Shown: positions 10,284 through 53,320, counted from the first letter of the stretch. The stretch: DNA of 64,000 bases from Candidatus Magasanikbacteria bacterium UBA922 (GCA_002293825.1 DBDW01000012.1:25147-89146); one strand, 5' to 3'. Translations and numbers: made by a program. Notes: generated by a model not told the origin, from the sequence alone.

Positions 10284-10289
10284 ACTTGA

Positions 10290-10528
10290 CGAAGCGTGAG
10301 GAAAGAGCGTATAGTTCTGTATATCTAAAGCGTTTGCACGAGAACCAGCCCAGCTCTCCTAGTCGAGGGCATGGTACCACTCTCGGAGCTTTATACAAAT
10401 ATAAGAAAAGTTTCAGTCACAGACTGGACCGCTATAAGCGGAAAAAACGGGTGGAACCGTCGTGAATATTTCATGTACTCATGACCCCGGCACAGTTCAA
10501 GCATTTGCTTGAGGGTGTCGGGTTTTTT
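10290..10528 (+). promoter_or_regulatory. T-box-like leader (tRNA-Thr sensing) with terminator, upstream of thrS
   Basis: ~240-nt leader. Begins with a GNUGA/AGAGA-type stem I base (gtgaggaaagagcg). An ACC-containing candidate specifier (gaaccag). T-box-like box aaacGGGTGGAACCGtcg (consensus AGGGUGGNACCGCG; the UGGA bulge fits a U73 discriminator). Terminator ccccggcac...gtgtcggg plus a T run directly before the thrS start. Confidence 0.4.
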
Positions 10529-24803: not shown

Positions 24804-24875
24804 TCCCTTGTAGTTCAATGGTAGAACACCTCGCTGTTAACGAGGGGGTTCCTGGTTCGAGTCCAGGCGGGGGAG
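24804..24875 (+). tRNA. tRNA-Asn (anticodon GUU), U1-A72 and G73 discriminator
   Basis: Acceptor TCCCTTG/CGGGGGA. U8 A9. D-arm GTTC AATGGTA GAAC. Anticodon stem CCTCG/CGAGG with loop CTGTTAA. T-arm CCTGG TTCGAGT CCAGG. Same U1-A72 and G73 as E. coli tRNA-Asn. CCA not encoded. Confidence 0.8.
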
Positions 24876-24986
24876 CATTTTTTTCAGAGTTACAAATAAA
24901 TAGATTTTAGTTTTCAACTTTGATTTGCTGGGTGAATAAAAAAATAAACCGCAGACGGTTTATTTTTTTATCCACAGATAACAGGT

Positions 24987-25309: not shown

Positions 25310-25870
25310 ATGAAAATATCGATGTATCTCGCACTTTCTTTGATCATTGTGAGTCTTGTATTGGGTATGGCATTTGGGTATTACCTGACACCTGAATATC
25401 AATCATCAATGTATGAAAAAAATACAATGAGTCTCGGACGTGCAGATCGAACATTTGATTTGCGATATATCAATGCCATGATTGCACATCATCGAGGCGC
25501 AATGCTGCTTGCAGCGCAATTGGCTGAGAATACTACACGACCAGAAATGCAGGCATTGGCACAGAATATTCTTGCAGATGAGCCGAAAGCCATTGCCGAA
25601 TTATATGAATGGAAAAAAGAATGGTATGGCGATACGCGATCAGTCCGTGATCCGGTAGTAGCAAATCTTGGACCATCTGGTGACACCTTTGATTTGAGAT
25701 TTTTGAATGCGATGATTGCTCATCATGAAGAGGGTATTCTCATGACTACTGAAACGAGACAGAAGTCTTCTCGTGCAGAAATATTGGATAATGCTGATGC
25801 AGTGGAGGTGTTTTTGAAAAATGGTATCCAAACATTGCAAGGTTTCAGAGCTGAGTGGTTTAATCTGTGA
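25310..25870 (+). CDS. DUF305-domain protein (copper-resistance associated), membrane-anchored
   Basis: Two repeats of the [16 protein letters not shown] / [16 protein letters not shown] motif typical of DUF305. Confidence 0.8.
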
Positions 25871-28134
25871 TATATATGAGTACACATACATACAAAATTA
25901 CAGGCATGCATTGTGCGAGTTGTGCGTCTGTAATTACCAAAAAATTATCAGCTGTGCCACATGTGCGTTCGGTTTCAGTAAACTATGGTACTGAGAAGGC
26001 AAAAATTGATTTTGATGACACTCATACTTCTCTCGACACATTGAATGGAGTGGTAGGTACATTGGGTTATACGCTTTCTGCGATAGATCACTCTGGTGCG
26101 GCTGAGCCAGAGTCTGTTACTAAAAAAATAGATGAACATGCTGAGCTTAAAAACAAAACTAATTTTATCCTTCCGATTGCATTATTAGTGTTTATACTCA
26201 TGATGTGGGATATTGGTGCGCAGATTTTTACAGGTGTTCCAAATTTTCCGATTCCGATGACATTATTCAATACGATTGGAATGGTATTGGCCACGATCGC
26301 ATTGTTTTGGGTGGGACAGCCATATATGCGTGGGATATTCAGATTTGCTCGATATGGAGTGGCAAATATGGATACACTTATTGGGATTGGGACATTCTCA
26401 GCATATCTGTATAGCATGAGTATCACACTTATTCCTCTGTTTTGGTCGTCACGCATGGTACCAGAATATACGTATTTTGATGTTACGATTGTGGTTATTG
26501 GTTTTATTACATTGGGTAAGTATTTGGAAGCTGTATCAAAGAAAAAGACTGGTGATGCGATTGAAAAACTTCTTAATTTGCAGGCCAAAAATGCTTTGGT
26601 AGTTCGAGAGGGTGTAGAGATTGAGATTCCTGTGAATCAGGTGCAACGTGGCGATATGATTGTGGTAAAACCGGGTGCAAAAATACCAGTTGATGGTGTT
26701 ATTGTTGAGGGTAGTTCTTTTGTTGATGAATCAATGGTAACGGGCGAGCCAATGCCAGTACAGAAAAAAATTGATGATACAGTAGTGTCTGGAACCATTA
26801 ATACCACCGGGTCATTTGTGTTTAGAGCGACAAAGGTGGGGTCTGAAACTTTTCTTGCCCAAATCGTTACGATGATTGAAGAAGCGCAGGGGAGTAAAGC
26901 ACCAATTCAGGCATTGGTCGATAAAATATCATCGGTGTTTGTGCCCACAGTACTCGTGATCGCTGGTATTACCTTTGTAACGTGGTTAAGTGTTGGTTCG
27001 ATATATCTTGGTTTTTCTCAGGCATTTTCATTTGGATTAGTTTCATTTGTGGGAATTTTGGTAATCGCGTGTCCATGTGCGTTGGGACTAGCCACACCCA
27101 CGGCGATTATCGTAGGTGTGGGAAAAGGTGCGGGGGCAGGGATCTTGGTGAAGGATGCTGCAACACTTGAGAAGTTGCATATGGTAGATACAGTGGTCGT
27201 CGATAAAACAGGAACCATTACTCAGGGTAAGCCCACATTGGTGAAGGTGCTCAATTTTTCTCGCATGAGTGATGTGGAATTAATTTCGATTACAGCGTCA
27301 CTGGAAAAAAAGTCTGAACATCCAATCGCACATGCGATTGTGCGTTATGCAGAAGAAGAAAATATTTCTATTTCAGAAGTTTCTGTGTTTGAAAGTGTGC
27401 AGGGGAAAGGTATTAGGGGACGTATCAATGGTACTGAGTATCTTGTGGGTAACAGGATACTCATGAGTGAGCATGGACTTGCCTTTGATCATGTGGCTAT
27501 TGATGAATATACTGCTCAGGGAAAAACACCGGTAATACTTGCTACCGCAGATCAGGTGCTTGGCATCATTATGGTTGCTGATGAAGTAAAACCAGAATCA
27601 AAACAAGCGATTGCAGATCTTCATGCACTAGGTATCACGGTGGTAATGCTTACGGGGGATGATGAGAAGACTGCGCGGTATGTTGCTTCTCTTGTGGGGA
27701 TTGATGATGTGATCGCTCAGGTGCTCCCTCAAGATAAGCGTGAAAAAGTACATACACTTCAGAAAAATGGGAAGGTGGTAGCTATGGCTGGCGACGGAGT
27801 TAATGATGCTCCTGCACTCGCGCAGGCTGATGTAGGTATTGCAATGGGAACGGGAACTGACGTAGCAATTGAATCAGCGGGTATTACGCTATTGGGGGGC
27901 GATATCTCAAAATTGGTTAAAGCAATTCGATTATCAAATATGACCATGCGAGGTATTAGACAAAATTTATTTTGGGCCTTTATCTATAATATCGTAGGTA
28001 TTCCACTTGCAGCTGGAGTGTTTTATCCATTGTTTGGGTGGGTACTCAATCCGGTTTTTGCGGGGTTTGCGATGGCGCTTTCGTCAGTGTCAGTGGTTTC
28101 AAATTCACTACGTATTAAGGCTAAGAAATTATAG
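25867..28134 (+). CDS. copA: copper-translocating P1B-type ATPase
   Basis: N-terminal HMA domain [13 protein letters not shown] motif ([11 protein letters not shown]). DKTGTIT phosphorylation site. GDGVNDAP hinge. Confidence 0.95.
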
Positions 28135-28158
28135 GTATACATATTAAAATTTTTATCT

Positions 28159-29166
28159 ATGAGTACGCATACGTTTCATGTTTCAGGAATGCATTGCGCA
28201 TCGTGTAAAATATTTATCGAGGATACGTTGAATTCTCACGAGTTGGTTCGTGTCGCGCAGGTAGATTTGAAAAAAGAAATTCTTCAGATTGAAACAAGTT
28301 CTACACATTCACCTGCAGAACTTGCAGATATTTTGACAAATGAAGTTGCATCAAATGGATATACTATTTCTGTTGAAAAAACAGGAGAAGGTATCAAAGA
28401 TAGTAATGATTTTTGGAAAGCTTTACCAATTGGACTTGGTGTTCTCGCTCTTTTTTTTCTGGTTCAAAAATCAGGTTTGTTGGATATTGGAGTCGGTGGG
28501 CAGATTACACCGGTTACTGGTTTTTTAATTGGGCTGATTGCTTCGGTATCTAGCTGTCTTGCAGTCGTAGGTGGTCTCGTCTTATCTCTTTCAGCAAATC
28601 TTGCTCAAGGTACTGTTCGAAACGCTAAAATATTGGTACAGTTTCATGTAGCACGTATAGTAAGTTTTGCTATGTTGGGTGGGGTGCTTGGTATGATCGG
28701 CGGTGTGATTGGTATTAATTTTACACTTACCACGATATTGGGAATCATAGCTTCTACTATAATGCTTGTGTTAGGTTTGAATTTATTGGGTGTAATTAAA
28801 AAAAATAATTTGGTTTTTTCTTCTCGTTTTTTTAACTTTTTTACACGCAATAAACGTTCAATCATTGCACCGTGGTTATTGGGTTTTGCAACATTTTTTT
28901 TACCGTGCGGATTTACCCAGTCTATGCAGGTTTCAGCATTGAGCAGTGGCTCATTTTTATCTGGATTGTTAATACTGTTTTCATTTGCATTGGGAACACT
29001 ACCAGTACTAGCGTTTCTTTCATTTGGTTCAGTCTCATTTGCGCGCGGAAATCATGCTTCATTATTTTTCAAATCTGCAGGAGTGGTAGTTATTGGTCTA
29101 GGATTATTTGCACTACTTTCTGGCCTTGCAGCACTTGGAATTATTACTCCGTTATTTAGTATCTAA
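28159..29166 (+). CDS. HMA-domain protein fused to a multi-TM domain with conserved cysteines (DsbD_2/CcdA-like or MerT-like)
   Basis: N-terminal GMHCASC metal-binding domain, then about 6 TM helices carrying Cys in SSCLAVVGG and FLPCGFTQS. Confidence 0.6.
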   Translation: MSTHTFHVSGMHCASCKIFIEDTLNSHELVRVAQVDLKKEILQIETSSTHSPAELADILTNEVASNGYTISVEKTGEGIKDSNDFWKALPIGLGVLALFFLVQKSGLLDIGVGGQITPVTGFLIGLIASVSSCLAVVGGLVLSLSANLAQGTVRNAKILVQFHVARIVSFAMLGGVLGMIGGVIGINFTLTTILGIIASTIMLVLGLNLLGVIKKNNLVFSSRFFNFFTRNKRSIIAPWLLGFATFFLPCGFTQSMQVSALSSGSFLSGLLILFSFALGTLPVLAFLSFGSVSFARGNHASLFFKSAGVVVIGLGLFALLSGLAALGIITPLFSI

Positions 29167-29170
29167 TTGT

Positions 29171-29566
29171 ATGAATAAAACTATTTCAATTGGTATTGCA
29201 CTTGTGTGCGTTGTGGGGATAGGAATCATATTGTTTGGGAAGTTTGAAAACACTACACAATCCTCTGAAATCGTAAGCGGGTCTAATGTTGAAATACGAG
29301 ATGGGGTGCAATATGTAACAATTACGGCGCGTGGTGGATATTTCCCAAAAAACTCTGTTGCAGAAGCAGGTATTCCCACCACATTAATTGTGAAGACAAA
29401 TAATACCTATGATTGTTCATCTGCATTAGTTATTCGATCTTTGGGATATCAGAATATGTTATCTCCGAGCGGGGAAGAGGTGATTGAGGTGGGTGTGCCA
29501 ACGACTGGTAAACTGCAGGGTCTGTGTAGTATGGGGATGTATTCTTTTGCGATTGATTTTCAATGA
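29171..29566 (+). CDS. small secreted cupredoxin-like copper-binding protein (putative)
   Basis: 131 aa. N-terminal TM/signal, a beta-rich body, and C...CSMGMY-type Cys/Met ligands near the C-terminus. Last gene of the copper operon. Confidence 0.45.
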   Translation: MNKTISIGIALVCVVGIGIILFGKFENTTQSSEIVSGSNVEIRDGVQYVTITARGGYFPKNSVAEAGIPTTLIVKTNNTYDCSSALVIRSLGYQNMLSPSGEEVIEVGVPTTGKLQGLCSMGMYSFAIDFQ

Positions 29567-30383: not shown

Positions 30384-30569
30384 ATGAAAAAATGGTATAA
30401 AAATTATTTGGATGCTCAGAAAAAGGCACAACCAAAATCAGATAATACAACTTCCTTACCGAATAAGCCGGTAACACGTCCCTCGAATACGCATGGGGGT
30501 GCTAAAAAATTTCGTGATCCAGTCGCAGTGGGAAAACGTACACGTTCAAAAACATTTGGTGCGTCTTAG
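30384..30569 (+). CDS. small basic hypothetical protein
   Basis: 61 aa, Lys/Arg-rich. Coding status uncertain. Confidence 0.3.
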   Translation: MKKWYKNYLDAQKKAQPKSDNTTSLPNKPVTRPSNTHGGAKKFRDPVAVGKRTRSKTFGAS

Positions 30570-30656
30570 TTTTTTGATGAGGACACAAGTGCGTGTTTGA
30601 TTGAGTATCTGAAATCAGATATACTCTTGGTATTAATGTATATTCTACACTCATTC

Positions 30657-30810
30657 CCTAACACCTGCTGTATGCAGGATGCCGGTAATCGTGGTAGTGT
30701 TACCCCATACATAGTCATCGGCATTGACGGGGTAACAATTGCTCGATTTTTGGAAAAACAAAAGTGTGTTAAGCTTTTGAAAGACCTCATTGAATATATA
30801 TGTGTTAGGT
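30657..30810 (+). repeat. structured palindromic element (attC-like family member) immediately upstream of the RT operon; candidate ncRNA
   Basis: Bounded by a perfect 8-bp inverted repeat CCTAACAC ... GTGTTAGG. Internal hairpins cctgc-tgtat-gcagg, gttacccc-22nt-ggggtaac and gatgtt-ctgccc-aacatc. Shares the 5' motif GTATGC(A/G)G and the 3' motif GTTAGnT-GATGT with elements at 47189, 47674 and 53459. Confidence 0.55.
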
Positions 30811-30836
30811 AGATGTTCTGCCCAACATCTTAGGGA

Positions 30837-32057
30837 GTGAGTGTATACTGTATGTTTTCAACAATTATATCTGCCAAGAATTTGGAAGGAGCGTATTTGG
30901 ATTTGGTTGAAAAATTTGCCGAAGATGGTAAAGAATTTACATATCATGGTATTGATAACTATACTCTCCTTGACTACGATTTTGATTCACTTGAATTACT
31001 TTCGAGAGTGCGTGACGAATTGATAGAGAAAAAACCTCTTGATCCTGCGCTCTTACTTCACATTCCAAAGAAGCATAATCCTGCAAAGACTCGGGATATT
31101 TTTGTATATACATTGAAAGAGCGAGTAAAAGCTCAGGCATTGTATCGGGTAGTGGTTCCATTGTTTGAACATTATTTTTCTAATCGCCTATTTTCGTATC
31201 GTCCTGGTAGACCACCATCTATTGCGGCGTATCTTTTTGCACGAAGGTATCGTCGATATCATAAGACCGATCACTGTCTCGTCGTAGATCTTCAGAATTA
31301 CTCCAATCTTTTAGACACTACAATTCTATTTGAACAACTAAAGAATGTGATTCCTGATTCTCGTGTTCGTGATCTCCTCAGATTATTTATCGTGAACCCG
31401 CTCTACGAACAAGGGGTGATACGTTCTATGGATCAGGGTGTTGTACAAGGTGTTCCGTTGATTGCATTATTTGCAAATTTATATCTCACGGATCTCGATT
31501 ATCGGTATCAAAAAATGGTGTCTTTCTATATTCGTGTGGGCGACGATTTGGTGCTTGCTGATCAGAATTCAGATACAATCGCACGAGTAGGTGAGCAATT
31601 AAAAGAAGATCTTCATGTGCGAGGACTCGAACTTAATCATGATAAATGGTACAGAGGACCTGCTCGTGGCGATTTTTCCTTTTTAGGATATCGTTTTTCG
31701 GCTGGACGTATCAGACTTGAGGATGGGTATGTGCGCTCGATGGTGCGTACCTGGAATCGATTATTGGTCGATAAACATAAAACAAAATCACAAAAATACG
31801 CACTGTTGGTACGTATTATGCGGCACCCTACACGAAATTTTACGAATCAATTTGAAGAGATGGTTCGAAGTAAACCTCAACTTAATGACAGTGAACAAAT
31901 TAAAGTATTGTCTGAGCGTTTTTTTGCAATTCTTACTGAATTTTATTTTGTTCGCTATACTCCACGTAATCGACGATTGCTCACTCGAGTGATTCGTGAT
32001 TTGGGGATACAATCACTGTATCATGTATATACACGTTTTCATTATGAACGATCCTGA
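30837..32057 (+). CDS. reverse transcriptase, standalone, non-retron, non-intron; VGDD catalytic box
   Basis: 406 aa. RT0 GIDNYT. RT1 LLHIPKKHNPAKTRDIFV. RT2 FSYRPGRPPSIAA. RT3/A LVVDLQNYSNLLD. RT4/B' QGVVQGVPLIALFANLYLTDLD. RT5/C FYIRVGDDLVLA. RT6 GLELNHDKW. RT7 FSFLGYRF. No VTG triplet, no maturase/X domain, no intron domain V downstream. Confidence 0.85.
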   Translation: MSVYCMFSTIISAKNLEGAYLDLVEKFAEDGKEFTYHGIDNYTLLDYDFDSLELLSRVRDELIEKKPLDPALLLHIPKKHNPAKTRDIFVYTLKERVKAQALYRVVVPLFEHYFSNRLFSYRPGRPPSIAAYLFARRYRRYHKTDHCLVVDLQNYSNLLDTTILFEQLKNVIPDSRVRDLLRLFIVNPLYEQGVIRSMDQGVVQGVPLIALFANLYLTDLDYRYQKMVSFYIRVGDDLVLADQNSDTIARVGEQLKEDLHVRGLELNHDKWYRGPARGDFSFLGYRFSAGRIRLEDGYVRSMVRTWNRLLVDKHKTKSQKYALLVRIMRHPTRNFTNQFEEMVRSKPQLNDSEQIKVLSERFFAILTEFYFVRYTPRNRRLLTRVIRDLGIQSLYHVYTRFHYERS

Positions 32058-33786
32058 TATCATGTCTCATACACGTATTCATATACAAGCACGATTATTG
32101 CGTCGTGCAAAAAAAAGGATCTACGCATGGCGTACGATTGTGTTGACTCGTTTTCACTATCGTCATGTGCTACATTTTTTGAAAACATATCGTGCGTTTG
32201 TATATGGACTATGTGCATTATTGATAACCCAGCTACTGGTAGAGACTGCGCTTATTATCATAGGGAGGCACTATAGTTATTTTGATACATCGTCTGTTGT
32301 GTATTCATATGTTGGATGGATTATCGCGGTACTTAGCAGTGTTTTTTTGTTGGTTTCTTTTTTTGCGCTGAAGTATGAACGAACACTGATAGTCTATTTT
32401 GCGAATCATATTCGAAAGAGATTGTTTGCTTCATATATATACGGACACGCGTCTTCATCGCGCGCACGTGCTCGATTGATTGCACAAATTTCATATCATG
32501 TGCCATTGGTTTCTCTCGGAGTTTCACATGTATTTTTTGGTGTATTGAGAATTGTGTTGTATGGTGGAGTGGTGGGAATCCTTGCGTATGTAGGAAATTT
32601 TTCTGTGTGGATATATAGTGGAGTGTATGTACTGGGGTGTGGTGTAGTTTTTCTTTTCGCATATTTCTTTTCTCGATACTGGACTTCCCAAGAAGTTACG
32701 TATTATTCGAGGATTATGCAGGGAATTGAGATTGATGCGTCTGATACAGATTTTATTACTATGTTTGGACAAAAAGAACGCATTCTTACTATGTTTGATC
32801 GATTGGTCGAATTTGATTCTTTTTTTCGCATACGACGAGATGTGTTTATGGGAATTGGGTATGCAGTCGTATTTGTACTGGTGCTCATATGTTCGATAGT
32901 GGTGCATGCACATCCTCAGATACTCAATTCTGTCATCACATCTCCATATAGCGCGGAGCGTATAGTAGTAATCTTTTTGTTTGTGTATATTTCTCGTGCA
33001 TTGGTGCAGGCATATCGCGCTGGTTTGTATATTTTTCCTGCTCGACTTGGACTTTTTTTAACACTTCGATCTACACGCACATCACCAGTACATAAGAAAG
33101 ATATTTCTTTGTCGGGAAAATCGATCCGTTTTCATGCTCGCAAGACAAAATTATTTTTTGAAAGTCCCTATTATCGACGTATGGATTTTTTGTTTCATCC
33201 AGGAGATCGTATTCTCATTCAGGGAGACAATCTTTCCGGCAAGACTTCGTTTGCGCGAATGTGTGCGGGTATTTCTGCATACACGCCACGAGCATTTACG
33301 ATTACAGTAGGTGAGGAACGACTTGATTTTTTCCAGTGGCACGCGCGGGTAGCGCGTGAGGTATACGTGTATGACCCGTCTATCAGAACTGAACGAAGTT
33401 TGATTGAATATATTGTGGGAAAGGTAAAAGAAGATATTTCTGCTGAAGAGTTTGCATCAGTGATTGCACATATACACAATTATCCGTCAATCGTAGCACT
33501 GGTAGCGCCTGATGGGAATTACAATGTTTCAGCACGGCACGTGTTGTCGAATCCGATTCAGGCATGTGCGCTTCATATACTGCACTGTATTGTATCAAAG
33601 CCATCGTTTATTATTATTGATAATTTTTGGATTGATCTCAATTATCCGCGTATTCGTGATATGATGCAGATACTTGATACAGCGGTACCATCATCGATTA
33701 TTCTCGTTTGCTCTCGCGTGTCCAATGAGTACTTTTCGTATACACAACACTATGTCTTCGCGAATACGATCACACGTCTCCTCTAA
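32044..33786 (+). CDS. 6-TM membrane domain fused to a degenerate ABC-type nucleotide-binding domain
   Basis: The start overlaps the RT stop by about 14 nt (MNDPDIMSH...). About 6 TM helices, then Walker A GDNLSGKTS. Signature-like LSNPIQ in place of LSGGQ. Walker B FIIIDN (catalytic Glu replaced by Asn). H-loop His absent (ILVCSRVSN). Confidence 0.7.
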   Translation: MNDPDIMSHTRIHIQARLLRRAKKRIYAWRTIVLTRFHYRHVLHFLKTYRAFVYGLCALLITQLLVETALIIIGRHYSYFDTSSVVYSYVGWIIAVLSSVFLLVSFFALKYERTLIVYFANHIRKRLFASYIYGHASSSRARARLIAQISYHVPLVSLGVSHVFFGVLRIVLYGGVVGILAYVGNFSVWIYSGVYVLGCGVVFLFAYFFSRYWTSQEVTYYSRIMQGIEIDASDTDFITMFGQKERILTMFDRLVEFDSFFRIRRDVFMGIGYAVVFVLVLICSIVVHAHPQILNSVITSPYSAERIVVIFLFVYISRALVQAYRAGLYIFPARLGLFLTLRSTRTSPVHKKDISLSGKSIRFHARKTKLFFESPYYRRMDFLFHPGDRILIQGDNLSGKTSFARMCAGISAYTPRAFTITVGEERLDFFQWHARVAREVYVYDPSIRTERSLIEYIVGKVKEDISAEEFASVIAHIHNYPSIVALVAPDGNYNVSARHVLSNPIQACALHILHCIVSKPSFIIIDNFWIDLNYPRIRDMMQILDTAVPSSIILVCSRVSNEYFSYTQHYVFANTITRLL

Positions 33787-34945
33787 GGTGAATATACTTG
33801 TATGGATACTTCCAGTGTGCGGACTGCTCGTAGTGACTGCATTATTTGTGTTTTTTGTTTCTAAAGGTTCTGTGAGAATTTCTCAGTCGGTATATCAGGG
33901 TGAAATAATTAAGTCCGAAGAGCCGTTTTCTGGAGAAGTGTATGCGAATACAGAATTTGAGGGAACTATCTTTTCCGATCTCATCGTTTCCCTGATCGAT
34001 CAGGCGACGACACGTATTGAGATTGCAGTGTATTCAATGAATCATCCGCGTATTCATGATGCATTGTATCGAGCTTCAGATCGGGGAGTGTTGGTGACAC
34101 TTCTCCTAAGTGCGTCTCGATCACAGACACATTCAATTGTTTTTTCTGATTTTCCTGATCAGATTACACGTATTGAGTATGATCCTCAGCGTGGATACAT
34201 GCATCATAAGTTTTTAATTGTCGATCGAGGACTTTCGAATGAAGTGCTTGTGTTTGGGTCATATAATTTTACAGAATTACAAGAGCGGTATGATGCAAGT
34301 TTTGTACTGAAAACTACGGATACACAAATTATTTCTATATTTGGTAGAGAATTTGATCGACTGGTGCGCAATGTGGGAACGAGCACGACTCATCTGTCTG
34401 ATTCTATGCCATCGATGACTCGCATAGAATATCCAGAAGGTGATTTGGAGATTTGGTTTTCTCCACCGGTATCACTTGGTACAGGTATACGTGAGCGTGT
34501 ACTCAATCTGATTACTCATGCGACAGAACGTATTCGTGTGATGATGTGGAGTATTACCGATACTCATGTCGCACGTGCACTGGTCTCTGCTGCTCGAGCA
34601 GGAAAAAGAGTGGAAATATTGACCGATGATTCGACGATGTTTAATACACATTCGGTGATTCCTGATCTGCATGAGGAAAAAGAAACACACACATTGAACA
34701 TGTTTGAAATTTTTACGGATGCAAAAAGGACAGAAGAGGTGTCTCCGGATATGGATACAGGATTTAATCCATTTTTACACCATCACACGACGATTATTGA
34801 TAGTAGAATTGTCCTGTTTGGAACGAGTAATTGGAGTGCAAATGGTTTTTATTATAACAATGAAGCCACTATGATCAGTACGATTCCATATCTAATTTCT
34901 TCATTTGAACATATTTTTGAGGATAATATGGCGCGATCAAAATGA
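33752..34945 (+). CDS. membrane-anchored phospholipase D-family protein with two HKD-type motifs, the second degenerate
   Basis: Overlaps the upstream gene end. N-terminal TM helix. First motif HHKFLIVDRGLSNEVLVFGSYNFT (HxKx4Dx6GSxN). Second motif HHHTTIIDSRIVLFGTSNWS (Lys replaced by His/Thr). Confidence 0.75.
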   Translation: MSSRIRSHVSSKVNILVWILPVCGLLVVTALFVFFVSKGSVRISQSVYQGEIIKSEEPFSGEVYANTEFEGTIFSDLIVSLIDQATTRIEIAVYSMNHPRIHDALYRASDRGVLVTLLLSASRSQTHSIVFSDFPDQITRIEYDPQRGYMHHKFLIVDRGLSNEVLVFGSYNFTELQERYDASFVLKTTDTQIISIFGREFDRLVRNVGTSTTHLSDSMPSMTRIEYPEGDLEIWFSPPVSLGTGIRERVLNLITHATERIRVMMWSITDTHVARALVSAARAGKRVEILTDDSTMFNTHSVIPDLHEEKETHTLNMFEIFTDAKRTEEVSPDMDTGFNPFLHHHTTIIDSRIVLFGTSNWSANGFYYNNEATMISTIPYLISSFEHIFEDNMARSK

Positions 34946-35026
34946 GTAAGAATGGTTGTGTTGGAGGAAATAGTGAGGTACTATACTGGTATGTAAGTTT
35001 TTTGGTAAATACCTAATGTTAGCGGT

Positions 35027-35383
35027 ATGCGTACATGTGTAGTGAGATATGTGTATATTTTTTGCACCGTATTGTTGTTGACCGGATGCACTGCGGAGAT
35101 CGAAACCGAAAAAGTAGATACCACATTAGGTGTGCCATCTCCATTTTTGAGCAATGGGGCATGTGAAGAGGACGCTGACTGTGTGCTCACCGACGCACTG
35201 TATGATCCCTGTGGGAGAGTGTACGCAATTCATATGAATACAAGTGAGGATGCTATTGAGAGATATAATGAATTGCAGATGAGGATTACAGAAGGTAGGC
35301 AGTATGATTGTGATATGCCTCCAAAGATTGAGGATTATCGAGCATTGTGTGAGAAACGTGTGTGTACTGCACGTCAAAGATAA
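35027..35383 (+). CDS. small Cys-rich lipoprotein
   Basis: Signal peptide with lipobox LLLTGC. 118 aa with 9 Cys. Confidence 0.5.
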   Translation: MRTCVVRYVYIFCTVLLLTGCTAEIETEKVDTTLGVPSPFLSNGACEEDADCVLTDALYDPCGRVYAIHMNTSEDAIERYNELQMRITEGRQYDCDMPPKIEDYRALCEKRVCTARQR

Positions 35384-36091: not shown

Positions 36092-36730
36092 CTAGGAATT
36101 GGAACGATCAAGGTAATCTCGTAACCTTTCTCGAGTTATCTCGACGAGGTGTTGTCGTGCACGGAAGAGGCGAGACATCACAGTACCGACGGGAACGTGT
36201 GTGTCATCTGCGATTTCGTCCTGCGACTTTTCTTTCCACACGTACAGTAGTATAGTTTTTTTGAATTTCGGGGACAGGTGCTCGAGTCCTTCTTCGAGTA
36301 TGTGTCTACACTCCATGTGCTCGAGTGCAGTGTGGGGATCAGTGTGCACTGATGGAGTGAAGTGGTTTCGATCCGAATGATAGGTCTCGTCATACGAATC
36401 ATATCCACGTTTCAGGTGCTTGTCCCGAAGCATGTTCAGTGCGATGTTTCTACTGATGTGAAGAATCCAGGCACGGAAATTCGTACCTTCCTGGAATGAA
36501 TGAGCATGGAGATGAATGCGGAGGAACGTCTCCTGTGTCACATCTTCTGCGACCGCAGTGTTGTGTACGATTTTCAGCACCATTCTGAATATCAGTGCAT
36601 GAAAATGAAGGTACAGTTTACGGAACGCGCCATTGGCATTTTGTTTCCACTGTGCGACGAGTTCTTCTTCTTGTGTACGAGCTGGTGTGGAAGACGACCG
36701 TGGTTTCGGGTGGATTGTACGTTTTTTCAT
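36092..36730 (-). CDS. ECF-type RNA polymerase sigma factor (sigma-70 regions 2 and 4)
   Basis: 212 aa. Region 2 (FRKLYLHFHALIFRMVLKIV...DVTQETFLRI) and region 4 HTH (LLYVWKEKSQDEIADDTHVPVGTVMSRLFRARQHL). Confidence 0.85.
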   Translation of the reverse strand: MKKRTIHPKPRSSSTPARTQEEELVAQWKQNANGAFRKLYLHFHALIFRMVLKIVHNTAVAEDVTQETFLRIHLHAHSFQEGTNFRAWILHISRNIALNMLRDKHLKRGYDSYDETYHSDRNHFTPSVHTDPHTALEHMECRHILEEGLEHLSPKFKKTILLYVWKEKSQDEIADDTHVPVGTVMSRLFRARQHLVEITRERLRDYLDRSNS

Positions 36731-46454: not shown

Positions 46455-46505
46455 AATTTTTTATAAAATGGACTAGAAAAATATTTTTTGAATTTGTTAT
46501 TGGTT

Positions 46506-46527
46506 GTTAGATGATATATTAAACATT
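46506..46527 (+). repeat. partial attC-like core (GTTAGAT-GATATATT) at the distal end of the cassette array
   Basis: ggttGTTAGATgatatattaaacatt lies immediately 3' of minus-strand ORF 46529..47158. It matches the 3' ends of the other elements (GTTAGnTGATGT). No partner inverse core was found. Confidence 0.4.
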
Positions 46528-46528
46528 T

Positions 46529-47158
46529 TTAATCCCCGATTTTAAGGAGTGTTCCGTGTTGCACATAAACTGGCATTTCCCAGTCGGGATGATTGGTCCA
46601 GGGATGATAAATCCATTTTTCTAAACTTTCATCTATTGTAATAATTTTGGCTGGCTCACCAAAAGCAGTTTTTATTTTTTCATTACTCCAACCTTGAAGA
46701 TCTGTTCCAATGTGCCCGATAAGACTACCTTGTCTCGCAGTTTGCATGTGTTTTAAACGCTCCAAGCGATATTCCTCTTGTGCTGATTTCAACCAATATT
46801 CCTTTTGCCAAATACCAAATGATCTAATACTAGTGATATTTGTGCTTGGAGCGAATGGATCTGGTCCCATGTTAAATCTGACTTCTCGAATAACCCAGAA
46901 TCTATTTGGGATTGAAAAAATAAAAACGATGAAAACAACGAAAGCTATTGGTATGTAAAAAATTGTAAATTTAATACTAATGCGCTTCGTTGTAGCCAGC
47001 CACAAATAATAAAAAAAGTTTAGAAAAATGGATACGATGAATGCAATCAGTAAATGCCCTCTATTCCAACCACGACCGTAAATGCCAGCCAACAGAATGT
47101 ATGCCGACACAAGACATAGAAATGCCGTGGGTACAAATAACAAGATTTTTTTCTTCAT
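46529..47158 (-). CDS. hypothetical membrane protein (cassette ORF)
   Basis: 209 aa with 3 N-terminal TM helices and no identifiable domain. Confidence 0.5.
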   Translation of the reverse strand: MKKKILLFVPTAFLCLVSAYILLAGIYGRGWNRGHLLIAFIVSIFLNFFYYLWLATTKRISIKFTIFYIPIAFVVFIVFIFSIPNRFWVIREVRFNMGPDPFAPSTNITSIRSFGIWQKEYWLKSAQEEYRLERLKHMQTARQGSLIGHIGTDLQGWSNEKIKTAFGEPAKIITIDESLEKWIYHPWTNHPDWEMPVYVQHGTLLKIGD

Positions 47159-47188
47159 AGCACGTAAATTAAAAATGTTTTATATTTC

Positions 47189-47264
47189 GCCTAACGGTCG
47201 CGTGTATGCGATGTGCGTCAGCATATGGGTGGAGCGAAGCGGAACCGCATACATGCTGTTAAAT
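47189..47264 (+). repeat. attC-like imperfect-palindromic element A (GCCTAAC ... GTTAAAT)
   Basis: 5' inverse core GCCTAAC (RYYYAAC). Arms gtgtatgcg / cgcatac. Internal ATATGGGTGGAG. 3' core GTTAAAT (GTTRRRY). The reverse strand reads ATTTAAC ... GTTAGGC. Followed on + by hairpin aatgat-gtattttcaaa-atcatt plus T7. Confidence 0.6.
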
Positions 47265-47279
47265 GATGTATTTTCAAAA

Positions 47280-47654
47280 TCATTCAGTTTTTTTACGAGC
47301 GGGCTTCACGAGCTTCATAATTAAGGTAAAAATTCCATAAAAAATAGTTGCCCAAAATATTGCATTGAGAACTATAGAAAATTCCCATACCCATGAAATA
47401 TTGTTACAAGCAGGTCGTGAAACAGTTCCGTGAAAGCCCATAACACAATCTGAATAAGTTCTAAATGGAAAACCTGACATGCCAATAACCTGCTTGCCGT
47501 TGTTTGTAGCATCAAACTCTATTTGTGCAGGGTACTCAATTTGATTGATCCTGGAATAACTAAAATCTGTTGTAAACACGAGGAGTGAAGCCCGCGTTAT
47601 TACGGCTATCAGGATACCTACTATTAGACTAATAATTAATGCTTTTTTATTCAT
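47280..47654 (-). CDS. small membrane protein (cassette ORF)
   Basis: 124 aa. N- and C-terminal TM helices with a Cys-containing loop. Confidence 0.5.
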   Translation of the reverse strand: MNKKALIISLIVGILIAVITRASLLVFTTDFSYSRINQIEYPAQIEFDATNNGKQVIGMSGFPFRTYSDCVMGFHGTVSRPACNNISWVWEFSIVLNAIFWATIFYGIFTLIMKLVKPARKKTE

Positions 47655-47673
47655 ATGATTTTGAAAATATTTT

Positions 47674-47800
47674 ATTTAACGTTCCTGCGTATGCGATGTT
47701 TGCCAGCGGTATAATTGCACGAAGTGCTTACCACTGGCAAATATGGGTGGAGGCTTGCGGAGGTACGGAGAAAGCCGTAACCGCATACGCAGTGTTAGCT
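47674..47800 (+). repeat. attC-like imperfect-palindromic element B (ATTTAAC ... GTTAGCT)
   Basis: Homologous to element A. It keeps ctgcgtatgcgatgt, ATATGGGTGGAG and aaccgcatacgcag, and has an inserted hairpin tttgccagcgg...ccactggcaaa. An 11-bp closing inverted repeat ctgcgtatgcg/cgcatacgcag. Followed on + by hairpin ccgacggtagtcgg plus ttgtttt. Confidence 0.6.
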
Positions 47801-47862
47801 GATGTATTCCTTTTCTTTTCCGACGGTAGTCGGTTGTTTTAAAAATTTTCAAATTTCTTTTT

Positions 47863-47990
47863 CCGTTTTGGGTGGTGGGCAGAGGGGAATTAAAGGGGTG
47901 AATGCCCGCCACCCAAAACACCTATTTCTGGTTTGAGGGAGGGGCAAGAGGGGAACTAAAGGGGTGAATTGCCCCGACCGAAAACATTCT
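47863..47990 (+). repeat. two tandem ~60-nt hairpin repeats with conserved loop AGAGGGGAAyTAAAGGGGTGAAT
   Basis: Copy 1 is gggtggtgggc-AGAGGGGAATTAAAGGGGTGAA-tgcccgccaccc. Copy 2 is gagggaggggc-AAGAGGGGAACTAAAGGGGTGAAT-tgccccgaccg. Located between the 878-aa gene stop and element B. Confidence 0.5.
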
Positions 47991-50625
47991 ATTGTTTCAA
48001 AAAGGCAATAATTATATTTAAATCTTCAGTTTTCAGTGGGTTTTCATTTGAGTTCTGTGTTGCATGTGTGCCACGATTACTCAGATCATTCCAGTAACCC
48101 TCTAGCTTTTTAATATCTTCTTCTTTCTTATCAATTTTTTTCAGATTTTCCCAAGGTACACCAACTCCACGAAGTCGATCTTTCATTAAACCAGTTTTTA
48201 ACAAAATTTTCTCGTCAATATAATGCTCAATTGCTGATTTTAAGTAACCAGAAACACAACTCAAAGAGTAATCGCTTTTCATTTCATTTTCCGCTTTCTC
48301 AATAAAATAGCTACAGGATTCATTCTGTGCTTCAAATATTCTGCCTGTTTTATCTTTTGACTCTCTGTCTACCTTGTAGGTGTAAACATGACAACCTTTG
48401 CCATTGCAACCTTTCTGTGTGTAATTTTTGCAAATATGATGAGTTTTATTGGTTGTTTCATTTTTAAGACTGTTTCCCCAATAAATCAACGAATCGTAAA
48501 ACAGTTTGTTATGCGTGAAAATTATAATCTGCCTATCTGATGACAGTTGTAAAAGTTTTTTAGCTAAAAAATCAGCTACTTCGTGATCAACACTGGTAAC
48601 AGGATCATCAAAAACAATTGGACATATATCATTTTGGCTTTCAATCTCTGCGAGAAATAATGCAAGCCCGACAGCCTTTTGTTCGCCATCGCTTAAAATT
48701 GCACGAACATCGTTTCCTAAAATTTTAAGCCTTGTACGAACAGATCCTTTGCCTGCCCCAGTCTTTTCAAGGCTGACTTCAATATTTTTACCCAAGGCTT
48801 TTAGTTCGTCTTCAAAAGATTGCCTTATTGAGTCCGTCAAAAGCTCATCGTGTGCCTTTGATCCCAACTCTGTAATTCCTCTAGTGCTTATACTTTGTTT
48901 TACGCTTTCATATTTTTGAACAGACTTGCAAATTGCAAAATGGCTTTCTATTTTTGTCTTCCATTTTGAAATATTTTGTTTGTCTTCAAGCTTGTTAATC
49001 TCAGTTAAATAACCGCTTATTTTCTGTGTTTTTTGAGTATCGGATTGCTGTAAATCATCTAGCTCTTTTTGCTTTTTTTCTGATAGTTCCTTTAGTTTTT
49101 CATCGGTATTCAATAGGTCTAGCGCATACTTTTCAGCGGTAGTCGCCTTGTCTTTTAACGCCCTTTCTATATCTTCTTTTTTCTTTGCAGCCACTACTAA
49201 CACTTGTTCAATTAATGTCTTATAATCTTGCTTCTGGTCGTTCTGTATCTCGGTTAAAGTTTTTTTCAAATTTTCTGAAAGAGTGAAATCCGTGACCAAA
49301 TCATCAATTTCTTTCTTCAGCTCGGTAATTTTATCAACAGAATCTTTGAAATTTTGTTGCGACTGATCATCCAAATATTGAGCGTATGCCTGAACAAGTT
49401 TTATGGCCTCCTCGCCTAACGGCTGGTGGCAATAGATACATTTTTCCTCATGATTAAAGACGGTCTGGTCAATTTTTGCGACATATTCTTTCGCCGATTC
49501 AATAAAAGTTTGCCATTCCTCACTGTCTTGAGCGGGTATATTTTTTAAAACTTCAAATTGTTTTACTCGTTCATCCCTTATTTTCTTTTTCTCTAAATAA
49601 TCCTTTATGGCAGAAAAAGTATTTGCTGTTAATTTCTCAAGGTTTGTTTTAACGTCAGATAAATGATTGTAAAGATCATCAATTTCTTTCTTTTCTTGAT
49701 TCAATACTTTTTTACTATCTTCCGTAGTGTTTTTTTCAAGGGAAGTCTTGTCTATTTTAAATTGAGCTAGTTGTGTTGCATCCTCCTCGGTAAAAAGTTT
49801 GTTAGTATCTAACAGTTGTTCTTCCTGTTCTGTTAATGAAGTTTTGCCAAGTAATGTTTTTAGATCATCAGAGTGAATAATATCGATCAATGTCTGTAGT
49901 TCGGGAGACGAGTCTTGCTTTTGTTGTTTCGCTTGATTTAACCTCTCTTTAAATTCATCAATAATTGTTGCGATTACTTGAAAAAAATTTAGCCCGAGCG
50001 GTTCTATGTTCACCGAGCTTTCGCGCTCATCTAAGAAAATTGGTAAATATTCTGTATCAAAAACTTTGATTTGACTGAATGGTGCAATGCCTCGGACCAA
50101 TTTATTATCCCATTTGAAAGTATTTTGTGTTTTATCATCTAATAAATAATCTACATGAACCTCTAATCCATCACCCTGATTATGGATGTTATCTAAAATA
50201 TCTTTAGACTTGATACCGCCAGCAAGCTCATTGATAATTCTGAAATAACCACTTTTCCCAGTGCCGTTAAGTCCAAAAATTATAGTACATGCAGGACTTA
50301 ATGTTATTGATTGGTTTGGAATAAGAGCATTAACGCCTTTTATATGAGTGATTTTTTGTAAAGAAAGTTTTTGTTTTTTTGAATTGTCTAGGGTTTCAGC
50401 TTCTACAATATCCTCTTGTTTTATCTCTTCATTATTTTCCTGATCATCCGTAATCTGATTTTCCTTTAGAAGCTCTTGAAATATTGCATTTTTTTCGGCA
50501 TCCGAAATTTTTGCATTGGCATCTATTACTTTTTGAATCAACAAAACAAGCCATTTTGGCGTGTCGCTTTTGGCTTTGTATTCAAGCAGGTAGTCCTTAG
50601 CATGTGATTTTGTTGAGTTACTCAT
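47989..50625 (-). CDS. ABC-type ATPase with a long coiled-coil insertion (AAA_13 / RloC-PrrC-like architecture) plus a Cys-containing C-terminal domain; candidate defence or abortive-infection protein
   Basis: 878 aa. N-terminal Walker A IIFGLNGTGKSGYF. About 450 aa of predicted coiled coil. Signature-like ILSDGEQKAV. Walker B PIVFDDPVTSVD. H-loop IIFTHN. About 190-aa C-terminal domain with CKNYTQKGCNGKGCH. AT-rich relative to the core genome. Confidence 0.7.
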   Translation of the reverse strand: MSNSTKSHAKDYLLEYKAKSDTPKWLVLLIQKVIDANAKISDAEKNAIFQELLKENQITDDQENNEEIKQEDIVEAETLDNSKKQKLSLQKITHIKGVNALIPNQSITLSPACTIIFGLNGTGKSGYFRIINELAGGIKSKDILDNIHNQGDGLEVHVDYLLDDKTQNTFKWDNKLVRGIAPFSQIKVFDTEYLPIFLDERESSVNIEPLGLNFFQVIATIIDEFKERLNQAKQQKQDSSPELQTLIDIIHSDDLKTLLGKTSLTEQEEQLLDTNKLFTEEDATQLAQFKIDKTSLEKNTTEDSKKVLNQEKKEIDDLYNHLSDVKTNLEKLTANTFSAIKDYLEKKKIRDERVKQFEVLKNIPAQDSEEWQTFIESAKEYVAKIDQTVFNHEEKCIYCHQPLGEEAIKLVQAYAQYLDDQSQQNFKDSVDKITELKKEIDDLVTDFTLSENLKKTLTEIQNDQKQDYKTLIEQVLVVAAKKKEDIERALKDKATTAEKYALDLLNTDEKLKELSEKKQKELDDLQQSDTQKTQKISGYLTEINKLEDKQNISKWKTKIESHFAICKSVQKYESVKQSISTRGITELGSKAHDELLTDSIRQSFEDELKALGKNIEVSLEKTGAGKGSVRTRLKILGNDVRAILSDGEQKAVGLALFLAEIESQNDICPIVFDDPVTSVDHEVADFLAKKLLQLSSDRQIIIFTHNKLFYDSLIYWGNSLKNETTNKTHHICKNYTQKGCNGKGCHVYTYKVDRESKDKTGRIFEAQNESCSYFIEKAENEMKSDYSLSCVSGYLKSAIEHYIDEKILLKTGLMKDRLRGVGVPWENLKKIDKKEEDIKKLEGYWNDLSNRGTHATQNSNENPLKTEDLNIIIAFLKQ

Positions 50626-51028
50626 CTTTTAGCTTTTTGTTAATATCTGAAAATGTTTTGCTGAAGTCTTTTTTTAACTCATGCTCCCAAACCCGGATCA
50701 CGTGCCAGCCTTCTTTTTTATAATGCCGATTCACCTCCTTATCACGTTCTTTATTCCGTGCGATTTTCTTTTCCCAAAACTCGGTTCTTGTTGCCGGCAT
50801 GGAGCCGTGTTTTTTGCAACCATGTCAGAAACAAGAATCCACGAAAATTACGGTTTTGTATTTCGGTAAAACAATGTCGGGCTTTCCGAAATACTTTGTT
50901 GAGTTTTTGAGATAACGATAGCCTTCTTTCCATAACGCTTTGCGGAGTAAGATCTCAATTTTGCTGTCCTTGTTTCTTACTTTGGACATGATGTCACTGC
51001 GTTTTGTTTTGGAAAAAATATCGGCCAT
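50618..51028 (-). pseudogene. vsr: very-short-patch-repair endonuclease gene interrupted by an in-frame TGA at the conserved Trp
   Basis: Two track ORFs sit in the same frame. The first ends ...KYKTVIFVDSCF, then a stop, then HGCKKHGS, then MPATRTEFWEKKIARNKERD...GWHVIRVWEHE. Together they reconstruct the Vsr motif FVxGCFWHGCxKH except TGA replaces TGG. Confidence 0.7.
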
Positions 51029-51030
51029 AG

Positions 51031-52113
51031 TTACTTGATAAATCGTATTTGGAGATTGAGCTTGATAAACAATTCGCCGTTTTCTTCGTAAATTGTGCCA
51101 TAGCCGTGACGAGTCGCACTAGGCGATTCCATGCGTGTATTGTTGAACAGGTAATTTCGAAATGCTTCGGCATTGTAGAGGTGATAGCAAACTATTTCGC
51201 CGTCTTCGCGAACAATGATCACGCCTCCGTGCGCTCGTAAAGTTCCGTCCCAAGGACTTGCGGGGACCATACCCAAAGCGGCGTTATTGAGTAGGGATTT
51301 GATTTTGTATTCGTAATCTTCTGTTGTGAGGTTGAAAGTCAAAATTTGCACTTCTTCATCTTGCAAGTGTTGTAGTAGTTCGGGAAAAGTTGAGCCTTTG
51401 TCGGAAAAATAAGCCAAAAGAACCTCTGCCATTATTTCAGGCATAATCGTATCAATTTTTCTCAAATTTCGTTCAAAAACTTCGGAATCAACCTTATGAA
51501 AAGCGAAACTTCCGCCAGCTTCACGAATCGCAAAAAGTCGATCACGAATTTTTGACTTGGTGTCGATTGCGTTTATCCTTTTTAGATTCTGTTTATCAAG
51601 CCCTGTTATTTTGTATGTAAAATTGGTCGCCCCCGAAGCGTTGAGCAAGGTTGCTGGCGAACCCAGTTTTGATTTAATGCTGAATCCGATTTCATGATCT
51701 CGTCCGATCGTGTGATCATGCACTTTTAAAATCAGGTCTTCTTTTCGTGAATTTCCCGCATTAAGTGTTTTAACTGCAAGACGATCAAAAAGTTCCTCTG
51801 CGAGCGGAACGGAAAAGGTCTGTGACTTTTCTTTGATTTCACTAAAAATTTCCACAACTTTGGTTTTTAAGTCGGAAGTATCAACGATTGCCGTTTCTCC
51901 GTTTCCGTGTAGGATTTTGACTTTTTCTCCTTCTTGCAATTCGTATTCCAGCTTTCCTTCGGATTCTTCACGTATGATTTTCAAAATGGGAAAGAAAATC
52001 GCCTCGATTTTTTCGAGATCTTGATCTGCGCCGATAATTTTCTTGTCGACGAGCAGTTTTATAAAAGCGTAAAACTCGCTCCATTCTCCTTTATTTCCTG
52101 TGATCATAAGCAT
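51031..52113 (-). CDS. putative type II restriction endonuclease (family not recognized)
   Basis: 360 aa. Co-oriented, and overlapping by 23 nt, with the upstream C5-MTase gene. Possible PD-(D/E)xK-like stretch VDTSD...EIFSEIKEK. The call rests mainly on context. Confidence 0.45.
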   Translation of the reverse strand: MLMITGNKGEWSEFYAFIKLLVDKKIIGADQDLEKIEAIFFPILKIIREESEGKLEYELQEGEKVKILHGNGETAIVDTSDLKTKVVEIFSEIKEKSQTFSVPLAEELFDRLAVKTLNAGNSRKEDLILKVHDHTIGRDHEIGFSIKSKLGSPATLLNASGATNFTYKITGLDKQNLKRINAIDTKSKIRDRLFAIREAGGSFAFHKVDSEVFERNLRKIDTIMPEIMAEVLLAYFSDKGSTFPELLQHLQDEEVQILTFNLTTEDYEYKIKSLLNNAALGMVPASPWDGTLRAHGGVIIVREDGEIVCYHLYNAEAFRNYLFNNTRMESPSATRHGYGTIYEENGELFIKLNLQIRFIK

Positions 52114-53008: not shown

Positions 53009-53011
53009 AGA

Positions 53012-53320
53012 CTATTTTATTAAATCGTTAATATCCACTTCCAAGCCTTGTGCAACTTTGGTTAGTGTTTCTATTGTGGGGTTTCCGTTTGTTCCCGATT
53101 CCAAAGTAACAATGGTATTGAGTGCAACATCGGCAAGTTTTGAAAGGCGATCTTGTGATATGCCTTTCTCGGTACGGATTCTTTTCAGATTTTTTCCTAT
53201 GTTTGAAATGTTTGGTTTCATATACCGGTAAAATGTAATATTTTCACTGGTTGTATTGTATCGTGTTTGAAAGTTTGGGTCAATTTTATAAAAATGTTCC
53301 GCTGATAGGCGGAACTCCAT
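53012..53320 (-). CDS. XRE-family HTH controller (C-protein-like) of the R-M module
   Basis: HTH IGKNLKRIRTEKGISQDRLSKLADVALNTIVTLESG. The likely start is the internal Met MKPNISN (about 53221), giving about 70 aa. Sits immediately upstream of the MTase on the same strand. Confidence 0.7.
   Translation of the reverse strand: MEFRLSAEHFYKIDPNFQTRYNTTSENITFYRYMKPNISNIGKNLKRIRTEKGISQDRLSKLADVALNTIVTLESGTNGNPTIETLTKVAQGLEVDINDLIK

Follow-up and report, generated by a model that had tools for sequence, protein, structure and literature searches.

What is the structured element that lies immediately 5' of a reverse transcriptase (RT) gene in Candidatus Magasanikbacteria bacterium UBA922? The locus was analysed within a 64,000-nucleotide stretch of this genome (GCA_002293825.1 DBDW01000012.1:25147-89146), hereafter the window, in which positions are counted from the first letter. 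In an initial annotation, the element was delimited at 30657-30810 and placed in the same repeat family as the attC-like sites of a cassette array 16 kb away, with the alternative that it is a multi-hairpin RNA acting as non-coding partner or template of the RT. It is this alternative that is strongly supported, both by heavy covariation and by the presence of the element upstream of orthologous RT operons. The element is wider than first delimited, covering about 200 nt at 30646-30845 on the plus strand and stopping 6 nt before the RT start codon, and it is almost certainly an RT-linked structured RNA. As an explanation of the whole, it is with good confidence the dedicated non-coding RNA (ncRNA) partner of the downstream RT, as scaffold or template. 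The observations behind this reading are an RNA fold conserved on the plus strand, a strict linkage between RNA and RT, and a fixed order in which the RT gene is followed by genes for an ABC-exporter-like (hereafter ABC-like) membrane protein and a PLD-family nuclease.

Architecture of the RNA element

The whole element has an RNA fold z-score of -6.6, and a search of Rfam with it returned no family at the gathering score or at E values up to 10. Single-sequence folds of 26 homologues gave a common architecture made of five helices, P1 to P5, and an additional pairing between two strands, a and a'. Covariation shows that the long closing stem P1 encloses hairpins P2 to P5, and that a 7-nt strand and the apical loop of P3 form a pseudoknot.

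The 5' arm of P1, TACACTCATTCCCTAA (30646-30661), pairs over 16 bp, including one G-U pair, with the 3' arm TTAGGGAGTGAGTGTA (30830-30845), and compensatory changes are found in all 12 modelled pairs (46 sequences). P2 is a small hairpin, CCTGC tgtat GCAGG (30664-30678), with compensatory changes in 3 of its 4 pairs. It is followed by strand a of the pseudoknot, ATGCCGG (30679-30685), which pairs with the loop at 30718-30724 and shows compensatory changes in 6 of 7 pairs. This loop, strand a', is the 7-nt apical loop of P3, a long stem-loop (30687-30748) composed of AATCG/CGATT, GTTACCCC/GGGGTAAC and the terminal hairpin GTCA-[TCGGCAT]-TGAC; the P3 arm was given by the single-sequence folds of all 26 homologues. 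The next hairpin, P4 (30759-30779), is variable in sequence and length and occurs in every single-sequence fold.

Between P4 and the last hairpin lies a conserved single-stranded motif, CCTCATTGAATATATAT (30785-30801), for which the family consensus reads CCUCrUUGGAUUUAAU. No other unpaired stretch is as conserved in sequence in alignments A2, A3, and A4; the motif is a candidate template or RT-contact region. The element is completed inside P1 by P5, GTGTT-A-GGTAGA tgt TCTGCC-C-AACAT (30802-30828), which displays compensatory changes in 10 of 11 pairs and was also recovered by RNAalifold on a MAFFT alignment fitted to no model.

Conservation and covariation

Homologues of the RT, 33-79% identical, were found in 65 loci by a scan of one genome per species, mostly in metagenome-assembled genomes (MAGs) of Patescibacteria. 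A covariance model (CM), R1, was built from 11 Patescibacteria loci, all from outside the lineage of the window. Applied to the 64-kb window, R1 gave a sole significant match, at 30649-30842 on the plus strand (39.5 bits, E 1.7e-6); the next matches were short hairpins with E values of at least 0.2, and the attC sites were unmatched. Over the window and the 65 loci together (66 sources, 787 kb), 47 matches were obtained at E <=0.01, all of them on the strand of the RT. These matches stop a few nucleotides before the RT ATG, with the exception of upstream tandem copies and of one locus, L014. At more distant loci, and in the only homologue from a viral contig, weaker matches occupy the corresponding position. 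In nearly all of the 63 loci, the RT is directly preceded by a closing stem of 9-28 bp that spans 160-290 nt, with sequences that differ from locus to locus.

The covariation itself was read from two kinds of alignment. On the unfitted MAFFT alignment, RNAalifold recovered the a/a' helix, P5, and part of P1, with compensatory changes in 15 of 20 pairs. In the alignment fitted to the CM, 93.6% of 1468 cells are paired, versus 28-46% when the partners are slid by 1-3 columns; changes on both sides are seen in 31 of 34 pairs, and none of 500 shuffles reached the observed values. G-U pairs make up about 8% of the cells (summed per-pair counts, CM alignment), and the fold therefore exists only on the plus strand, that is, as RNA. 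In the pseudoknot, strand a' sits in a hairpin loop, usually of exactly 7 nt, in 43 of 46 matches, and at least eight co-varying variants of strands a and a' were seen, among them ATATTAG/TTAATAT, ATGCCGG/TCGGCAT, GCATTAA/CTAATGC, and GTGTTAA/CTAACAC. A small-protein reading of the element was rejected, as stop codons interrupt all six frames in 42 of 46 copies, and indels of 1 nt distinguish close relatives.

The initial annotation had also considered what would undo its own proposal, namely a lack of covariation or family signal beyond the short cores, or an element missing upstream of orthologous RT operons. The first was found with respect to attC only, heavy covariation being present as RNA; as to the second, the element is present at these operons.

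The reverse transcriptase and its two membrane partners

The RT (30852-32057, plus strand) is a compact protein of 401 amino acids of the group-II-intron type, which matches Pfam RVT_1 and in which no endonuclease or DNA-binding domain was found. Its best matches in PADLOC are a generic RT model (117 bits) and RT_UG26 (109 bits), the latter covering profile positions 45-312 of 398 and having no curated cut-off in PADLOC. The group II intron RT model gives a score similar to that of UG26, 108 bits for a cut-off of 300. Matches to hidden Markov models also include UG17, Drt9, and RT-Cas1, and the scores for UG26, UG17, RT-Cas1, and group II are similar and partial. Retron models score low, with 21 bits for NCBIfam retron St85 versus a cut-off of 235, and 23 bits for PADLOC retron RT_IX. 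The AF2 model of the RT (pLDDT 90.7) has as best structural match the group II intron RT GsI-IIC (TM 0.74, full length), followed by G2L4, DRT9, and the RT of a diversity-generating retroelement (DGR). Motif C (residues 228-232) reads R-V-G-D-D instead of the usual YxDD; among 53 homologues, its R, G, D, and D are invariant and its V nearly so. About 75 close homologues, 38-100% identical, were found, mostly in Patescibacteria metagenome bins. A phage origin was rejected, only one relative being present among IMG/VR viral contigs.

The order RT, ABC-like protein (570-590 amino acids), PLD protein is kept in all loci long enough to show it. In the window, the ABC-like protein (580 amino acids; 32044-33786, plus strand; open reading frame (ORF) open from 31996) comprises six transmembrane helices and a nucleotide-binding domain. 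Profile searches of the PDB returned PCAT1, ABCB4, MsbA, and PglK, and MsbA is also the top Foldseek match of its predicted structure (E 3e-13, about 580 aligned columns). Its Walker A motif reads GDNLSGKT, and a simple Walker A pattern was found in only 44 of the 65 ORFs of the ABC-like cluster; after Walker B, Asn replaces the catalytic Glu (invariant D526 N527), and the signature motif is degenerate (LSNPxQ). No PADLOC model matches this protein.

The third protein of the module (33674-34945, plus strand, start codon uncertain) is a two-domain PLD-family nuclease of the Nuc/NucT-like type with an N-terminal transmembrane anchor. It matches PLDc_2 twice, resembles NucT, Nuc, and Zucchini, and hits only DrmC-like models in PADLOC. 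Its first catalytic motif is HxK and its second consistently HxH. An N-terminal transmembrane helix is found in 59 of 59 homologues, with the N side richer in K/R in 53 of them, which by the positive-inside rule suggests that the nuclease faces outward.

Likeness to known systems of RT and structured RNA

An RT with a dedicated structured ncRNA is a kind of system that is already known, and the element can be compared with several of them. In layout, it resembles the msr-msd of retrons: the ncRNA immediately precedes the RT in the same orientation, long closing inverted repeats comparable to a1/a2 surround several hairpins (for P1, 16 bp in the window, 9-28 bp in other loci), its size is 160-290 nt, and the system is of the tripartite type with effector genes. 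It differs from retrons by its loop-strand pseudoknot and by its RT, which is not retron-type (21 bits versus the cut-off of 235) and whose fold is nearest to group II intron RTs and G2L4. To our knowledge, no retron type has ABC-exporter-like and PLD effectors.

The class 2 UG/DRT systems (DRT2, DRT9, DRT10/UG17; UG26) likewise have a compact RT that is preceded by a structured ncRNA dedicated to it, and the RT of the window matches the UG26, UG17, and Drt9 models as well as the DRT9 structure. The conserved unpaired stretch that follows the stable hairpin P4 is reminiscent of the DRT10 template loop, which follows SL5 (PMC12632851). Differences are nevertheless evident. The UG26 score, about 110 bits, is no higher than that of group II intron RT models, and UG26 was linked at most to YcjD in the UG/Abi survey (PMC9226505). 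UG17/DRT10 has a SLATT effector (PMC9226505) in place of the ABC-like and PLD proteins. No poly-U template was found in the element in this comparison. The parallel with the core of telomerase RNA, already drawn for DRT10 (PMC12632851), concerns the layout only: a closing helix, a pseudoknot, and a short conserved single strand bounded by a hairpin. Unlike in telomerase RNA, no repeat-alignment pattern was detected in the element.

By these analogies, the element is rather likely to serve as scaffold or template of the RT. A number of points nonetheless weigh against this assignment. The functional steps of the RT-RNA reading are all inferred. The comparison loci are almost all MAGs, and in about one third of them, those with the most distant RTs, the R1 matches are weak or missing. 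The pair counts given above for the CM come from a model-fitted alignment that leans toward structure, and are somewhat inflated. The conserved branching G is absent after P1, where the junction reads AAAACC or CACC in the alignments, so that priming in the style of retrons is unlikely. An A-B-A' pattern (A of at least 4 nt) occurs in the conserved unpaired region in 63% of sequences versus 54% of shuffles, which is not significant, and a DRT10- or telomerase-like template pattern of this kind was rejected for want of enrichment. Finally, only 6 nt separate the 3' arm of P1 from the ATG in the window, and in several loci this arm extends to or overlaps the start-codon region, as could be expected of an element that controls the RT gene in cis.

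Partner RNA or cis-acting leader

This last point leads to the explanation that survives best beside a partner RNA. The element would be a cis-acting 5' leader only, controlling transcription or translation of the RT operon, without any role as template or scaffold. In one variant, the RT would regulate itself by binding close to where its own translation starts, in the manner of group II intron proteins at DIVa. Besides the position of P1, this reading has in its favour that the element immediately precedes the RT in the same orientation without an intervening terminator, and that the RT is of the group-II-intron type. DIVa adjoins the start codon of the intron's own RT (LtrA), as the structured RNA does here. 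This lack of a terminator makes co-transcription with the RT likely, as in retrons. A Shine-Dalgarno role for the G-rich 3' arm of P1 was rejected, its distance of 14-18 nt from the ATG being too long.

Such a purely regulatory leader is, however, unlikely. In four loci (L015, L025, L029, and L036), a tandem second copy of the ncRNA is found upstream of one RT, and these upstream copies are unable to occlude a start codon. The copies, at 5526-5697 and 5829-5993 in L015, 5627-5804 and 5815-5992 in L025, 5609-5773 and 5795-5990 in L029, and 931-1184 and 1237-1376 in L036, share about 80% identity, with differences in the conserved unpaired region. In L014, the ncRNA (3812-3976) is located 2 kb from the RT, behind two pilin-like genes. 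Both the tandem copies and this separation speak against the RNA being a mere translational operator. Its size, its pseudoknot and its strongly conserved unpaired motif also exceed what such an operator needs, and in the related RT families that have been studied, the ncRNAs are dedicated and used as template or scaffold (PMC9226505, PMC12632851).

Possible signals for expression were also located. In the window, a promoter-like site, TTGATT-17-TATACT (30597-30625, plus strand), precedes the element, with a match to the consensus of 9 of 12 positions only. In many Patescibacteria loci, an extended -10 element (TGnTATAAT) is found 7-8 nt before the first base of P1. Taken with the tandem copies and the separation in L014, this -10 element suggests that the RNA acts in trans and is not a leader only.

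An improbable alternative: the RNA of a retroelement

According to a second alternative, the element would be the RNA of a mobile or diversity-generating retroelement, either a degenerate fragment of a group II intron or a DGR RNA made of template repeat (TR) and spacer. The RT invites this comparison by its fold, which is nearest to group II intron RTs, GsI-IIC in particular, and by its match to a DGR RT; DGRs were moreover reported as the commonest RTs in bacteria of the candidate phyla radiation (PMC8632793), and pilin-like genes adjoin the module in 10 loci. The alternative is nonetheless very improbable. Rfam group II intron families gave no match in the window at the gathering score, nor around the element at E values up to 10, and with no intron RNA found via Rfam a group II intron was rejected. 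With 200 nt, the element falls far short of what intron domains I-VI require, the RT carries no endonuclease or DNA-binding domain, and its gene is fixed in an operon with membrane proteins, the ABC-like and PLD partners not being retroelement genes. A DGR was rejected as well: blastn comparison of the element and its flanks with their own locus revealed no second copy resembling a TR or a variable repeat (VR) in 38 loci, only tandem duplicates of the whole element.

The element and the attC sites of the integron

That the element is an attC-family member of the integron located 16-23 kb away, and that the RT operon is or was a bracketed gene cassette, is scarcely credible, and both ideas were rejected on the null results of an attC model, the lack of an attC fold, and the differences seen in the closest relative, L002. 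The strings that had suggested them do exist. CCTAACAC at 30657-30664 and GTGTTAGG at 30802-30809 make up a perfect 8-bp inverted repeat, and the terminal R''/R' cores (RYYYAAC...GTTRRRY) are present as an inverted repeat about 140 nt apart, with CCTAAC at 30657 and GTTAGG at 30804. The internal motif GTATGCAGGATG is located at 30670-30681, the strings GTATGC and GATG(T) are shared with the attC sites A, B, and C of the array, and GTTAGCGGTATGCG is found after the PLD gene, at 35017-35030. Pairs of CTAAC...GTTAG at 60-200 nt from each other are rare in the window, with about 0.4 expected from the site counts and only two observed, one in the element and the other in attC C. On the other hand, the window holds 187 perfect 8-bp inverted-repeat pairs 100-200 nt apart, versus about 112 in shuffles, and 33 occurrences of GTATGC, so that the motifs in common are no more than chance would provide.

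Sites A, B, and C are genuine attC-type sites beside an integron-integrase-like gene, and a second CM, R2, was built from them. This model scored 84-144 bits on its three training sites. On the RT-upstream element, it scored 7.2 bits with E of about 1.1 (filters off, 4.9 kb), and its alignment placed the inverted repeat in the wrong box, the L box, leaving the R stem unpaired. With default filters, R2 had no match at the element and no further plus-strand match in the rest of the window. It had none at 35012-35030, where a 3' remnant of the family had been proposed, and none over the 65 related loci (723 kb). No family signal thus extends beyond the short cores.

Folding the element as single-stranded DNA led to the same result. 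On neither strand does it fold like an attC site: the 8-bp stem is followed by local hairpins, the 3' side beside GTGTTAGG is unpaired, and the L''/L' stem, the central bulge and the extrahelical-base architecture of attC sites are missing. No GCATAC partner for GTATGC exists anywhere in the element. As RNA, the two core motifs belong to separate covarying helices, P1 and P5. CCTAA lies inside the 5' arm of P1, CCTAACAC corresponds to the inner end of this arm plus the junction, and GTGTTAGG is the 5' arm of P5, locally paired with CC-C-AACAT; GTATGCAGG is the loop plus 3' arm of P2.

In L002, whose RT is 79% identical, CCCTACTAC, ATGTCGGG, and TTTTGCAGG replace CCTAACAC, GTGTTAGG, and GTATGCAGG, and the attC-like strings are thus lineage-specific states of covarying RNA positions. 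The supposed 3' remnant is not conserved either. An extra DoxX-like gene stands in its place in L002, and in the window it overlaps the ATG (35027) of the next ORF. The element lies 23 kb from the integrase-like gene, among non-cassette genes, and the same RT block is found in unrelated contexts in other genomes. Unlike the attC sites of one host's array, it travels with the RT across phyla, as a plus-strand RNA fold with G-U pairs. The correction removes a false link between the RT locus and the integron of the same window.

The integron itself is chromosomal and occupies 46483-55037, with an array at about 46.5-54.1 kb. Its divergent tyrosine recombinase (54117-55037) resembles integron integrases (TIGR02249, 244 bits, just under the cut-off of 265) and is adjoined by minus-strand cassettes, among which sites A (47186-47270), B (47671-47806), and C (53457-53646) are distributed. 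As single-stranded DNA, each of the three folds into an R stem, a 3-nt bulge, and an L stem of at least 11 bp. An attI-like sequence, GTTAGCTGAAAT, is located at 54088-54099 (minus strand), and an isolated R'-like end at 46506-46517. Among the cassettes are an HpaII restriction-modification pair (51031-53008) and an AAA_13 ATPase (47989-50625). An Rfam scan of the array region found no attC-type family. The 5.6-kb segment from attC B to attC C is edged by imperfect inverted repeats that reach 75 nt or more past the attC cores (47794-47986, 53300-53466), with two arm pairs of 27 nt and 33 nt at 93% and 91% complementarity, respectively. Its left end carries two tandem 56-nt hairpin-forming units (47865-47920 and 47931-47986), and related inverted units can be seen by eye near 53300-53370. 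The segment has the appearance of a large cassette or of an inserted element.

Genomic neighbourhood of the module

The neighbourhood of the module is not a typical defence-island context. A small basic protein of 61 amino acids, orf61 (30384-30569, plus strand), is encoded upstream of the ncRNA in the window, in L001, and in L002, the window and L002 being colinear from 30383. In L004-L007, orf61 is instead just downstream of the PLD gene (about 10230-10414; 6276-6449 in L005), and could represent a fifth component particular to a lineage, or else reflect a rearrangement of the module. In distant loci (L034-L064, for example L034 10173-12029), a 196-residue transmembrane protein usually follows the PLD gene on the same strand (16 loci).

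Other neighbours recur. One or two membrane-anchored Cupredoxin_1 proteins are encoded near the module in 11 loci, usually next in line, and in the window a Cupredoxin_1-like ORF (29108-29566) and a metal-resistance cluster (25310-29566) are just upstream. Seven loci have a gene for an ECF sigma factor next to the module, the window being one of them (36092-36730, minus strand). Pilin-like genes, which adjoin it in 10 loci, are paralogous and of the type-IV-pilin-like kind in L014 (2794-5992), with one before the ncRNA and two between the ncRNA and the RT.

In many loci, a tRNA gene is found upstream on the same strand, at 24804-24876 in the window. It is a tRNA-Asn(gtt) gene 1.6-6 kb upstream in the lineage of the window (window, L004, L005, L006, L008), a tRNA-Gln gene 0.5-0.9 kb upstream in L011 and L048, and a tRNA-Ser gene 0.4-0.8 kb upstream of weak ncRNA matches in L045 and L057; in L015, a tRNA-Tyr gene stops 25 nt before the first ncRNA copy, and L018 also belongs to these loci. 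Such positions suggest that the module sits in tRNA-linked variable regions. In several cases, a small Patescibacteria genome contains two or three diverged whole RT modules: L017 and L030 are on one contig, L051, L054, and L058 in one MAG, and L022/L050, L036/L053, and L024/L062 form further multi-copy sets.

A working model and its significance

If the element is the partner RNA of the RT, its action may be pictured as follows. A promoter of its own would probably drive the ncRNA, which would form the 5' part of the operon transcript. The RT would bind it as a scaffold and, by analogy with retrons, DRT2, DRT9, and DRT10, most likely also use it as a template for DNA synthesis, the best template candidate being the conserved unpaired stretch between P4 and P5. 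As the 3' arm of P1 reaches or adjoins the RT start codon, RT translation may in addition be limited by the fold, as a secondary role. The RNA-RT pair would work together with the degenerate MsbA-type ABC-exporter-like protein and with the N-terminally anchored PLD nuclease, probably facing outward, in a system of four parts. What associates these partners is their fixed gene order.

The RNA, the RT clade, and the pairing of an ABC-like protein with a membrane PLD protein were not found in Rfam, PADLOC, the surveys of UG/Abi and prokaryotic RTs, or the full-text literature, in which subscription journals were only partly covered. We propose, tentatively and as one possibility among others, that the modules are undescribed RT systems of Patescibacteria, in which the RT would copy part of the RNA into DNA and the product would be sensed by, or handed to, the membrane ABC-like and PLD proteins. 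Were this the case, repeats could, as one option, be made from the unpaired stretch that separates P4 and P5, in the manner of telomerase or DRT10.

Each of the systems that associate an RT with an ncRNA, namely retrons, DRT2, DRT9, and DRT10, turned out to make DNA in an unexpected manner, and some of them became tools. The present module adds a new case, with a compact RT of the group-II-intron type, an RNA with five covarying helices and a pseudoknot, and two invariant membrane partners, of which one is probably an extracytoplasmic nuclease. The RT family is widespread, often multi-copy, and concentrated in Patescibacteria, whose biology is poorly known. If the proposal is true, the output of an RT system would in these bacteria act at or across the cell envelope, and not in the cytoplasm.

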